DNA of 54,166 bases from a virus (lineage: Duplodnaviria > Caudoviricetes): IMG/VR virus record IMGVR_UViG_3300033149_001397, positions 1 through 54,166 of that record, one strand, 5' to 3'. A program made the position numbers and the translations under genes. Of the stretch, positions 27,497 to 30,150 are shown piece after piece (the first letter of the stretch is position 1; each line of letters opens with the position of its first letter). Below the pieces are notes generated by a model. That model worked only from the letters and a program-made list of their open reading frames with translations, was not told where the DNA came from and searched no databases.

Positions 27497-28378
27497 CTAA
27501 TCCTCTGTGTCTTGTTTCTGCTGGGCAATATCAACCACCGCACCCATAACATGCTGGTTAGAATATGGAAGGCCAGATATGGAAAATACATCGGACACAA
27601 ACCCGCATACGTCCTTGTTGTATAAAGAATCCCGCACCGCACCAAGGTTGCTAATCAGCCCTTTCAGCCCGTGTAGTTTGCTGTATTTCCGCGAATCTTT
27701 CCCGGCAACAATGACGCTGTTGTCTGTGATTGTCCCTATCAGCAGCCCGCATAGCGCCATTGCATCAACATCGTCCCACCGCCGCTTCAGCCGGCTATAA
27801 AATATCCCGTAGTACGGAATTATCCATGGTATCAATCCATGATTCCTGTGTTTCTCAACCAACCCCTTATATCGTTCGTATGACATTTCCGGCGTGAACG
27901 ATGTTCCATGCAGCCCGAGGCATTGGTATCTTCTATTGTCGAATATACATTTGAATGTGTATCCGTCCTTCTTCATTCTGGTTATCTGGTCAACCTCGCA
28001 CGCGACCCTGTTGATATACGGATAGTTTTTCATGATTTCATGCTTGTAAATTTTAACCCCGAATATCCACCTATCAAGATGAACGTCCCACAGCGGATAT
28101 ACTATGATTGCTTCTTTCGGCCCGCTTTCAATCACGCCGTTATACATGCGGCGAACCGCGTCCGGGCGCAACAGCATATCCTCGTCAACCTGTATATAGT
28201 ATGGTGTCTCGCACCGATTAATCATTTCCTGAAATGCCGCCGCTGACGGCGAGTAGTTTTCTACCGTATCAAGCTGAAACTTACAGTCTTGATTCTTTAG
28301 TCTCGATACGCAATCTGCCGCAGTAATGCCGCCAATAGTAATCACGTATACTGTTAATTCGCTGCTAAGGTCTTTCAT
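27497..28378 (-). CDS. GT-A fold glycosyltransferase-like protein
   Basis: LTVYVITIG, AFQEM..RC.T.Y.IQVDEDM (DxD); paralogue of N-terminus of 28375-30150. Confidence 0.75.
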   Translation of the reverse strand: MKDLSSELTVYVITIGGITAADCVSRLKNQDCKFQLDTVENYSPSAAAFQEMINRCETPYYIQVDEDMLLRPDAVRRMYNGVIESGPKEAIIVYPLWDVHLDRWIFGVKIYKHEIMKNYPYINRVACEVDQITRMKKDGYTFKCIFDNRRYQCLGLHGTSFTPEMSYERYKGLVEKHRNHGLIPWIIPYYGIFYSRLKRRWDDVDAMALCGLLIGTITDNSVIVAGKDSRKYSKLHGLKGLISNLGAVRDSLYNKDVCGFVSDVFSISGLPYSNQHVMGAVVDIAQQKQDTED

Positions 28379-30150
28379 CCTATCACCCTGCCAAAACAGT
28401 GTTTACAGCTCTCCTGTGGCTGTTTGCTTAACACCGAATATCTCAACTCGTTAAACGCCTCTATGTTGTATGGGCTCGCTGGCGTGTCAATTCTGTGAAT
28501 GTCTTGTGGCGGGGCAATACGCCGGCACAGCCCTGTCAGAACCCAGTCGTATTTTGCAGCACACCGCGCGGCAACAAACGGGCTTTTGCAGTTGTGGACC
28601 CTCATGGTTGTATCAATCGGCGTCGGCCACACTGTCACAAGCTCAGCGCCCGGCAGGTTTTTATACCCCTCAATTTCTTCAATCTGTTCTGTGTCTGTGT
28701 CAAAAATCGCCACATCCCGGAAGGCCCTGCTATCCAATGGTGACATTTCGAAATGTGGCAGCGTGTTCATAAATGTTATGAACGCCACCCCGAGCCCGTT
28801 GGCGAACCCAATGAACGCCGGAATCTCTGTATAATTCTGCTTGTTCACCACGCATGATACGCCTGTTTTTATCTGGCCTTTAACCGCCTCGATTCCTGCC
28901 AGCACAACCTCAAACGTCTTTGTGCGCGTGACCATGTTGTGGCCATCTGCATCATAGGCATTCAGGCTCACGGATATGTTATCAAGCCCTGATTCAACAA
29001 GAGAATCCGCATGCTTGTGCAGAAGTATTCCATTTGTGATAAGAGATACAAACTTGCCCTTGCTTTTTAGCAACCTGATAATATCAAACACATTCTCATT
29101 AAGCAGCGGTTCGCCCATTCCGGCAAGGCATGCCCCGGTGATTGATGGGAACTTTCGAAGGAACCGCTCAACGTGCTGGGGCTCCAGGTCTTTAAACCCA
29201 GTCACCTCTTCCGTGTGCTCTTCTCTGCGGCAGAACCAGCAGCGCGAATTACACTTGTCGGTCATAAACAAAACAGCCTCACGCGGAGCCCCGAGTTTTG
29301 ACATGACTCGATTGATATTATCTTCTGTGTATGGCAGCCCGGACAGGTCCATGATATCAGTTATAAACTGTCGCGGCCATTTGTTGTGGAATGAAAAATC
29401 AAGCACGTCAAGGTTGTCAAGTATTCCGCGCACCCCGGGAAGGCTGCCATATTTTGTATAGTCTTTTTCCCCTGTGTTTTCGTTAACGTCTGTTATGTTG
29501 CCTATCACCATTCCGGCGAATGATGCGGCGGCAATGGGATTGAAATTCTGCTCCATGCGATTAAAAAATATCTGATAATACTCGTCAACCCATCTGACAA
29601 GACCATGGCGACGGTGTTTTTCCACGAGGTCTTTGTATCGCTCGTATGCTGTTATCGTTGTATATGATGTGCCGTGCAGGCCCACGCACGATTCGCGGCC
29701 GCCATAGGGAATGTTCTTGAATGTGTATCCGTCCGCTTCCAGCCGCTTGAACTGTCCGACCTCGCATGAGATTGTGTTCTCGTATGGGTAGTTTCGGACA
29801 ATGTTGTGGTCATATATTTTGACGCCCTGCAACCACCTGTCAAGATGGACATCCCACAGCGGGAACACCGCAAACGCCTCTTTGTCGTCGAGGCTAATCG
29901 CCGCATCATACATCGTCTGTACGGCTGTTTCTTCAAGTATCATATCCTCATCAAGCTGAATGAAGTATCTTGTTTTACATCGCGTCAACATCTCCTGGAA
30001 TGCCGCAGACATTGGGCGCTTGTTGACGATAAAGGCAACGTTGAACACGCCATCGCACTCCTGCTTTTTCAGCGCCGACACGCACGCATCAAATGTCTCG
30101 CCACCAATACTGATTACAAACACTGTCAAGTCAAGCCGATTCAATTCCAT
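28375..30150 (-). CDS. GT-A glycosyltransferase-like domain fused to radical SAM domain with Cys-containing (SPASM/twitch-like) tail
   Basis: IQLDEDM; CNSRCWFC (CxxxCxxC), GMGEPLL, ITNG.LL, ISVSLN; C-terminal CKSPF...LC...CKHC. Confidence 0.88.
   Translation of the reverse strand: MELNRLDLTVFVISIGGETFDACVSALKKQECDGVFNVAFIVNKRPMSAAFQEMLTRCKTRYFIQLDEDMILEETAVQTMYDAAISLDDKEAFAVFPLWDVHLDRWLQGVKIYDHNIVRNYPYENTISCEVGQFKRLEADGYTFKNIPYGGRESCVGLHGTSYTTITAYERYKDLVEKHRRHGLVRWVDEYYQIFFNRMEQNFNPIAAASFAGMVIGNITDVNENTGEKDYTKYGSLPGVRGILDNLDVLDFSFHNKWPRQFITDIMDLSGLPYTEDNINRVMSKLGAPREAVLFMTDKCNSRCWFCRREEHTEEVTGFKDLEPQHVERFLRKFPSITGACLAGMGEPLLNENVFDIIRLLKSKGKFVSLITNGILLHKHADSLVESGLDNISVSLNAYDADGHNMVTRTKTFEVVLAGIEAVKGQIKTGVSCVVNKQNYTEIPAFIGFANGLGVAFITFMNTLPHFEMSPLDSRAFRDVAIFDTDTEQIEEIEGYKNLPGAELVTVWPTPIDTTMRVHNCKSPFVAARCAAKYDWVLTGLCRRIAPPQDIHRIDTPASPYNIEAFNELRYSVLSKQPQESCKHCFGRVIG

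Follow-up and report, generated by a model that had tools for sequence, protein, structure and literature searches.

A glycosyltransferase-like domain fused to a radical SAM enzyme in a sugar-gene cassette of a tailed phage: recurrence, gene context and proposed function

The window analysed here is the whole of IMG/VR record IMGVR_UViG_3300033149_001397, a complete tailed-phage genome of 54,166 bp bounded by direct terminal repeats. On its minus strand it encodes a fusion protein in which an N-terminal glycosyltransferase (GT) domain of the GT-A type (hereafter the N-domain) is joined to a radical S-adenosylmethionine (SAM) enzyme with a twitch-type tail. The open reading frame (ORF) of this fusion contains no internal stop codons. 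It is overlapped by the gene upstream by 20 nt, and the sequence GAGAGG lies 10 nt 5' of its ATG. The parts of the fusion are the following:

28375..30150 (-): whole fusion ORF, 591 amino acids, a single open frame with an ATG start and its stop codon at 28375-28377
29296..30150 (-): GT2-like GT-A domain, residues 1-285, from the AlphaFold model and Foldseek matches
29944..29952 (-): DxD motif D67-E68-D69, where a beta strand ends
28804..29265 (-): radical SAM core, residues 296-449 (PF04055)
29230..29253 (-): C300-x3-C304-x2-C307, predicted ligands of the SAM-binding [4Fe-4S] cluster
28378..28638 (-): twitch-type C-terminal domain, residues ~505-591, with C521, C542, C582 and C585

Residues 1-285 alone gave no significant match in Pfam, NCBIfam, PHROGs or a PDB sequence search. 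A PDB profile search with the N-domain returned only E values of 0.13-0.37, the second-best match being the DxD region of heparosan synthase. The AlphaFold model of the domain had a pLDDT (predicted local distance difference test) of 93.0 and a predicted template modelling score (pTM) of 0.89, with a GT-A core at residues ~1-160, a family-specific helical part at ~165-240 and linker helices up to 285. All PDB matches listed by Foldseek were GT-A/GT2 enzymes or the uridine diphosphate (UDP)-binding majastridin (E 1e-6 to 3e-5); they included majastridin with UDP, CgT, WrtF, PcManGT, RmlT, TarP, SpsA and SunS, as well as hyaluronan, cellulose and chondroitin synthases. Template modelling (TM) scores on the query reached only 0.39-0.49 because the helical half (residues ~165-285) falls outside the GT-A core. 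Among viral models (BFVD), the N-domain matched GT2-type proteins, including the Che8 glycosyltransferase Q855A2 at rank 19. These matches, to GT-A folds only, confirm the GT-A-like N-terminal domain of about 290 residues with a DED motif that the initial annotation had described. At the sequence level, PF00535 was matched at E <= 1 by 29 of 39 N-domain family members (best 1.4e-8). The N-domain is a divergent GT2 relative, below Pfam-level membership.

In the model, strand 62-67 precedes D67-E68-D69, as in GT-A enzymes. D67 and D69 were invariant in 28 aligned fusions and 39 N-domains; across the best 150 N-domain representatives D69 was invariant and D67 conserved in at least 90%. A further polar set (D100, H159, E130, Q133, K111 and E228) was invariant or nearly so in the fusions and likewise in stand-alone N-domains. 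Two cysteines of this domain, C58 (~29975-29977) and C129 (~29762-29764), were also at least 90% conserved in the best 150 representatives, with or without a radical SAM domain, and could form a disulfide, a metal site or part of a catalytic apparatus.

The radical SAM assignment was clear: Pfam Radical_SAM matched residues 296-449 with 84.5 bits against a cut-off of 29.5, over profile positions 3-165 of 166, and a second Pfam run on the same coordinates gave 87.7 bits. The protein has a single CX3CX2C, CNSRCWFC at residues 300-307, whose C300, C304 and C307 were kept in 28/28 aligned fusions. A glycine-rich 'GGE' SAM-binding motif after beta 2 is typical of the radical SAM superfamily. Here a motif C-x-A-G-x-G-E-P-L was present, with G344 and G346 invariant and E347, P348 and L349 conserved in at least 90%. 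Further cysteines of the fusion lie at positions 23, 32, 58, 129, 155, 341, 433, 521, 530, 542, 582 and 585. C521, C542, C582 and C585 were each kept in 27 of 28 sequences, the exception being a truncated protein. In the model, C521 stands before and C542 after the hairpin E527-533/E536-540, and C582 and C585 lie past helix 564-574.

According to excerpts of PMC6231123, a twitch domain is a truncated SPASM domain that binds one auxiliary cluster, with ligands flanking a beta hairpin and following helix alpha2', whereas the SPASM subclass has two auxiliary clusters and the motif CX9-15GX4C-gap-CX2CX5CX3C-gap-C. The seven-cysteine SPASM motif was not found in the fusion: four C-terminal cysteines are conserved, and CX5CX3C is lacking because the chain stops 6 residues beyond C582-x2-C585. 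PF13186 was precomputed on only 3 of the 27 full-length homologs listed. On the model, the tail of the fusion is of the twitch type with room for one auxiliary cluster, its ligand pattern being that given in the same excerpts (PMC6231123). The core motif and extra C-terminal cysteines noted earlier therefore stand, with the tail now specified as twitch rather than SPASM.

The whole-protein model was built from the cluster representative P0001, whose sole difference from the phage protein is K299R. It had a pLDDT of 91.4 and a pTM of 0.87; the latter points to GT-A and radical SAM domains that, as modelled, are packed in a defined way. The best PDB fold matches of the whole model were BlsE, MoaA, DesII, SkfB, SuiB, GDGT-MAS, NifB, PqqE and viperins. 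Profile matches to PqqE, CteB and SuiB ran on through the C-terminal region. NCBIfam matches covered only residues ~290-477 and all fell far below their cut-offs (TIGR02668 95.3 vs 325, TIGR04317 94.6 vs 380, BlsE 57.6 vs 400 and AhbD 64.6 vs 500 bits).

A search of the fusion against 5.8 billion clustered proteins gave 354 matches at E <= 0.001. Among the best 120 of these, at least 27 proteins (P0002-P0028) share the full architecture, with 28-41% identity and 87-99% coverage. Since it recurs in 27 independent metagenomic proteins, the fusion is neither a chance event nor a misassembly; together with the uninterrupted assembled frame, this recurrence bears out the earlier claim of a single fused protein. 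The N-domain profile, run against 1.84 billion representatives, matched 1204 at E <= 0.001, 896 at 1e-10 and 410 at 1e-30. The best 150 were scanned by a local hmmsearch with a radical SAM profile cut from the fusion alignment. The same radical SAM domain was found on 68 of them, in 66 over more than 240 profile positions. Of these 68 proteins, 24 are 858-1366 aa long, a length that implies additional domains; in P0002, this addition is a GT1/GT4 domain within the same protein.

Genomic linkage was followed in 145 loci, 65 of them viral and 80 from prokaryotic assemblies. The subfamily radical SAM domain (>=120 bits) was present in 27 loci and fused to the N-domain in 21. Three more loci keep the two parts as separate genes in the same order. 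In L020 and L021, the N-domain forms the C-terminal end of a large protein, and the stop codon of its gene overlaps the beginning of the radical SAM gene; in L031, the two are 1.3 kb apart. The domains are thus fused or neighbouring in 24 of 27 radical SAM loci and, judged from sequence, are evolutionarily locked together. A class-I methyltransferase gene was also observed just upstream of the radical SAM gene in L018, L019, L025 and L031, which suggests a methyltransferase-radical SAM pairing independent of the GT. The overlapping or abutting pairs are:

L018:9328-10873: methyltransferase-radical SAM pair
L025:2517-4027: methyltransferase-radical SAM pair
L031:9310-10909: methyltransferase-radical SAM pair

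The fusion occurred in 4 of the 80 genome loci (L068, L069, L070 and L121), on metagenome-assembled genome (MAG) contigs of 5,289, 4,514, 25,112 and 49,665 bp, and the other 76 held the N-domain alone. Two of these fusion contigs are labelled Bacteroidales, one Bipolaricaulota and one Alphaproteobacteria. A low-oxygen host niche, suggested in the initial annotation, found no backing: nothing beyond three MAG labels (the two Bacteroidales and the Bipolaricaulota) hints at anaerobes, and radical SAM enzymes function in aerobes too. On Nitrospira contigs from many assemblies (L084-L111, e.g. L106:8762-15319), the N-domain was observed at ~400-620 of proteins of ~2100-2300 aa.

No full-length relative was found by tblastn of the fusion against 50,697 GenBank phage records; 12 records matched, over the radical SAM core only, at 22-35% coverage. 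Among proteins shorter than 325 aa, a word-index search of limited reach for stand-alone relatives of the radical SAM domain found three proteins at E <= 1e-10, the only close relative being P0266 (38% identity). Protein-atlas clusters of small viral radical SAM proteins were listed as leads only.

The fusion gene belongs to a cassette of eight packed minus-strand genes located between capsid and tail genes. Six of its seven junctions are overlaps of 4-20 nt or a 4-nt gap, and one is a 25-nt gap. Besides the fusion, the cassette and the gene separating it from the capsid gene comprise:

32984..34267 (-): 427-aa protein of unassigned family, separating the cassette from the capsid gene
31827..32960 (-): GT9-like (heptosyltransferase-like) protein, below cut-off (TIGR02193 E 1.8e-9, PF01075 E 3e-4)
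30131..31834 (-): GT2 (GT-A) plus GT1/GT4 (GT-B) protein (PF00535 at residues 5-123, PF13692/PF00534 at 394-528)
27497..28378 (-): stand-alone N-domain paralog, 293 aa (49% identity over 273 residues, E 4e-95)
26674..27492 (-): class-I SAM methyltransferase (PF13489 E 1.5e-12)
25847..26677 (-): sulfotransferase-like protein (PF13469 E 0.005, below cut-off; L070 homolog E 1.8e-9)
24625..25821 (-): UDP-sulfoquinovose synthase homolog (NF041015 E 1.7e-150, 501 bits vs a cut-off of 575, 383/384 profile positions)
23738..24628 (-): nucleoside diphosphate (NDP)-sugar epimerase/dehydratase (phrog_540 E 5e-67; TIGR01181 E 4e-43, below cut-off)

The GT2-GT4 gene is directly upstream of the fusion, and its GT4 half is the fusion's most conserved neighbour elsewhere. 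The paralog is immediately downstream, its start overlapping the fusion stop by 4 nt. Judged by the overlap with the paralog, the methyltransferase probably starts at the ATG at 27492 (the listed ORF begins at 27645). None of the cassette enzymes has a convincing transmembrane segment. The 427-aa protein contains 10-12% each of Thr, Val, Gly and Asp and a hydrophobic N-terminal segment (residues ~1-27), and Pfam, PHROGs and NCBIfam gave no match to it. Its role may be that of a decoration or fibre protein, and it is a candidate glycan acceptor. The UDP-sulfoquinovose synthase homolog was absent from all related fusion loci. A viral UDP-sulfoquinovose synthase was noted earlier in a Mu-like virus (PMC7785012, excerpts).

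Across 22 related loci, the most conserved neighbour was a GT4 protein of ~330 aa, found in 14 of them and in the phage genome, at position -1 in seven. Two methyltransferase clusters occurred in 8 and 3 of the 22 loci, and epimerases in 3 loci and the phage genome. A Sulfotransfer_3-type protein stood beside the fusion in four loci and the phage genome (e.g. L070:5362-6261), and a Sulfotransfer_2-type protein directly downstream of it in three (e.g. L012:11617-12264); these recurring sulfotransferase-like neighbours hint at sulfated glycans made by phages. Capsid homologs were located at -1/-2 from the fusion in two loci (L008 and L015). No conserved small peptide or acceptor gene was found beside the fusion in the 22 loci.

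The family scan drew on 21 loci, in which 157 ORFs lie within 4 kb; it covered 150 of these, leaving out seven distal ones on the minus strand. L014 was omitted, being syntenic with L012 and L016. Family counts among the 150 ORFs were 12 for GT1/GT4, 2-6 for each methyltransferase family, 3 for epimerase, 3 + 2 for sulfotransferases, and 2 each for DegT aminotransferases, GT10 and Portal_Mu. PHROG counts were 10 for glycosyltransferase, 2 for major head, 3 for portal and 3 for terminase. DNA polymerase, dUTPase and DNA methyltransferases were also among these neighbours.

In the surrounding phage genome, nearly all long ORFs lie on the minus strand, and no tRNA genes were found. The assigned genes outside the cassette are:

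2155-4230: RecT/RecE-type recombination module
21263-22273: minor tail protein (PHROG match)
34332-35270 (-): major capsid protein (phrog_1005 E 9.5e-64)
35702-37168: head protease (PHROG match)
37611-40025 (-): portal plus MuF-like head domain in one 804-aa ORF (phrog_113 at residues 33-444; phrog_220 and others at ~630-780)
40555-42282: large terminase (PHROG match)
43292-44326 (+): DNA methyltransferase (phrog_1008)
46021-46728: amidase
49635-50291: DNA methylase

The capsid protein showed only 24-31% identity to capsids from cultured phages of several phyla (Proteobacteria, Actinobacteria and Bacillus), so no host was assigned. The DNA methyltransferase at 43292-44326 is the sole plus-strand ORF among those with a family match and lies within the sole 2-kb bin of positive AT skew. 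Downstream of the minor tail gene, four successive ORFs of 704, 1347, 194 and 1093 aa occupy 10409-20605 (-). They had no PHROG match at E <= 1e-4 and presumably encode a novel type of tail, fibre or tape-measure protein.

Several characterised enzymes share parts of this architecture. BtrN is the butirosin 2-deoxy-scyllo-inosamine dehydrogenase, an antibiotic-pathway enzyme that serves as the prototype of twitch radical SAM enzymes with a sugar-like substrate. Its PDB profile match (4m7t, E 2.9e-10) covers the core only (profile positions 255-365), and it differs from the fusion in being a stand-alone enzyme without a GT domain. Like the fusion, BtrN combines a radical SAM core with a twitch domain in which four cysteines fully ligate one auxiliary [4Fe-4S] cluster, and the two share a ligand topology in which single cysteines flank the hairpin on either side and a pair follows helix alpha2' (PMC6231123, excerpts). 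The cytosylglucuronate decarboxylase BlsE was the best structural match (7vob, E 9e-12; profile match E 1.8e-15), and the TDP-sugar deaminase DesII the fifth (8hzv). These two matches indicate that the fold handles nucleotide-linked sugars; however, the BlsE score, far below the NCBIfam cut-off, means that the fusion is no equivalog of BlsE, and neither BlsE nor DesII is GT-fused. The best sequence relative of the core was the GTP 3',8-cyclase MoaA (TIGR02668 E 3e-27; 1tv7 E 1.6e-16), whose context is molybdopterin synthesis rather than glycan synthesis. MoaA is also a twitch enzyme, but it leaves one iron of its auxiliary cluster open for GTP, whereas the fusion family conserves four cysteines (PMC6231123, excerpts). 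The peptide maturases SkfB, CteB and SuiB resemble the fusion in their three-part layout, with an accessory domain before the core (PMC6231123, excerpts). Their N-terminal domain is a peptide-binding RRE instead of a GT-A domain, and no conserved precursor peptide gene accompanies the fusion.

To our knowledge, no radical SAM partner has been reported in mycobacteriophage virion glycosylation. In that system, GT-A enzymes of Che8 and its relatives glycosylate capsid and tail tube subunits (PMC12619734, excerpts). The Che8 enzyme is a phage-encoded GT-A protein like the N-domain; for the present phage, virion glycosylation is something we infer only, and its cassette differs in having the GT fused to a radical SAM domain and in carrying sulfotransferase-like and sulfoquinovose genes. 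Bacterial protein-atlas clusters with 57-261 members join PF00535 and PF04055 as the fusion does. They were likened to it by language-model features only (scores 0.85-0.90) and serve as leads; since none is among the best 120 of 354 sequence relatives, they are probably independent fusions. This shows that GT-radical SAM coupling recurs and that the general architecture is already in databases. Literature searches found no characterised glycosyltransferase-radical SAM fusion; excerpts of PMC7159879 mention both domains, in unrelated contexts.

We tentatively favour a bifunctional enzyme whose GT-A domain serves sugar transfer and whose radical SAM domain tailors a sugar, probably on virion proteins. 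A coupling of sugar transfer to radical tailoring, as proposed in the initial annotation, fits the domain linkage in 24 of 27 loci and the sugar-enzyme neighbours; the chemistry and the target are what we infer. The fusion would be a soluble bifunctional enzyme within a phage-encoded glycan assembly line. Its GT-A domain would bind a nucleotide sugar via a divalent metal at D67/D69 and add the sugar to a glycan under assembly. The radical SAM domain would cleave SAM to a 5'-deoxyadenosyl radical, which would abstract hydrogen from a sugar carbon of the donor or of the newly attached residue. The resulting radical would then be resolved, with the four-cysteine auxiliary cluster acting as an electron sink, as proposed for BtrN. 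The product could be a keto, epimerised or otherwise tailored sugar, which the neighbouring GT4, GT9-like, methyltransferase and sulfotransferase-like enzymes would extend or decorate. Sugar-directed radical chemistry is favoured because the nearest solved structures include BlsE (rank 1) and DesII.

The likeliest target, modified in the cytoplasm, would be a virion protein, either the capsid protein or its 427-aa neighbour. A virion target is suggested by the position of the cassette between capsid and tail genes, by the capsid homologs near the fusion in L008 and L015, and by the presence of a glycosyltransferase of the Che8 virion-glycosylation system among the N-domain fold matches. Action in the cytoplasm is suggested because the cassette enzymes are without convincing transmembrane segments.

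Several observations weigh against this proposal. The PF00535 score of the fusion protein itself is 12.9 bits against a threshold of 23.3. On sequence scores, the radical SAM domain falls outside the equivalogs of MoaA, BlsE, AhbD, the tungsten-cofactor maturase and every other curated family. In sequence it is as near to MoaA, NifB and maturases as to sugar enzymes. Function in the SPASM/twitch subfamily is not readable from similarity, according to excerpts of PMC6231123. The linkage is also not universal: 82 of the best 150 N-domain representatives are without the radical SAM domain, and in L018, L019 and L025 the radical SAM gene has no N-domain in the stretch examined, so it can work without the GT. 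Finally, while the sugar context of the fusion is general, its placement among structural genes is not.

The same chemistry could instead remodel a host surface glycan (lipopolysaccharide, capsule or S-layer) during infection or lysogeny, for example in superinfection exclusion. The N-domain family is common in cellular genomes, with 76 of 80 genome loci lacking the radical SAM domain, and is often found inside multidomain Nitrospira proteins of ~2180 aa; the cassette also includes a GT9-like heptosyltransferase homolog and lies away from head genes in other loci. However, no flippase, polymerase or membrane-anchored GT was found in the complete phage genome, the cassette enzymes have no transmembrane segments, and in this phage the cassette sits within the structural gene block. 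We consider a host target unlikely.

A bolder form of the virion proposal sees in the fusion a phage-borne class of 'radical glycosyltransferases'. The radical would arise on the acceptor or on the sugar that has just been transferred, making a sugar or linkage beyond Leloir chemistry on capsid glycans bearing sulfoquinovose, sulfate and methyl groups. Examples would be a C-C, C-S or ether linkage, or a residue turned into a branched, keto or epimerised form on the polymer itself. We regard this as unlikely. Activation of an unreactive acceptor for glycosylation, likewise raised in the initial annotation, is a minority option, and the superfamily's known sugar reactions, rather than new chemistry, could cover the fusion.

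It is quite unlikely that the radical SAM domain acts on a residue of an acceptor protein, with the GT-A domain glycosylating at or next to the modified residue. The family profile does align through the C-terminal region with PqqE, CteB and SuiB, SkfB and SuiB are among the top fold matches, and an uncharacterised 427-aa protein adjoins the capsid gene. The order of N-terminal accessory domain, core and twitch also mirrors the RRE, core and twitch of SkfB (PMC6231123, excerpts). Yet the neighbours are sugar enzymes, the 22 loci hold no conserved small peptide or acceptor gene, and the fusion itself has no RRE domain. The four-cysteine site, moreover, would offer no open iron of the kind described for MoaA or proposed for CteB (PMC6231123, excerpts).

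Alternatively, the GT-A domain could be a non-catalytic module that binds a nucleotide sugar and feeds it to the radical SAM domain, transfer being left to neighbouring GTs including the paralog. Its top fold match, majastridin, is entered only as the UDP complex of an ATPase-operon gene product, and we know of no transferase activity of that protein. The active-looking paralog next door and the subthreshold PF00535 score also agree with such a module. Against it, the DxD motif and the polar set D100, H159, E130, Q133, K111 and E228 are kept as in stand-alone members, and this conservation argues for retained catalysis, so far as residues can indicate it. A purely binding role thus appears improbable.

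Some pathways of thymidine hypermodification involve radical SAM enzymes. Glycan hypermodification of the phage DNA by the cassette, with the radical SAM domain taking part in base modification, is very improbable even though phage glycosyltransferases acting on DNA are known (PMC12619734, excerpts), because the complete genome is without a thymidylate-synthase-like gene (0 matches to the hydroxymethylase family PF00303, which the control found in 10 of 14 genomes), while the sulfotransferase, sulfoquinovose and GT9-type genes suit protein or polysaccharide glycans better and the cassette is placed in the structural block.

The bifunctional tailoring enzyme that we tentatively favour adds to the known GT2-like transferases, twitch radical SAM enzymes and phage glycosylation cassettes. 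The glycosylation of phage particles, a young field with few studies so far, bears on immune evasion and phage surface properties, and the GT-radical SAM family spans dozens of uncultured phage lineages. Judged from the cassette, sulfoquinovose and sulfated sugars may occur on virions. If the proposal is true, phages carry their own radical sugar chemistry, and the family would provide new enzymes for glycan engineering as well as a compact, soluble two-domain model of radical SAM tailoring coupled to sugar transfer. The fusion belongs to a conserved, uncharacterised set of phage genes whose probable role is the assembly of modified sugar chains, with the virion as the likeliest site.

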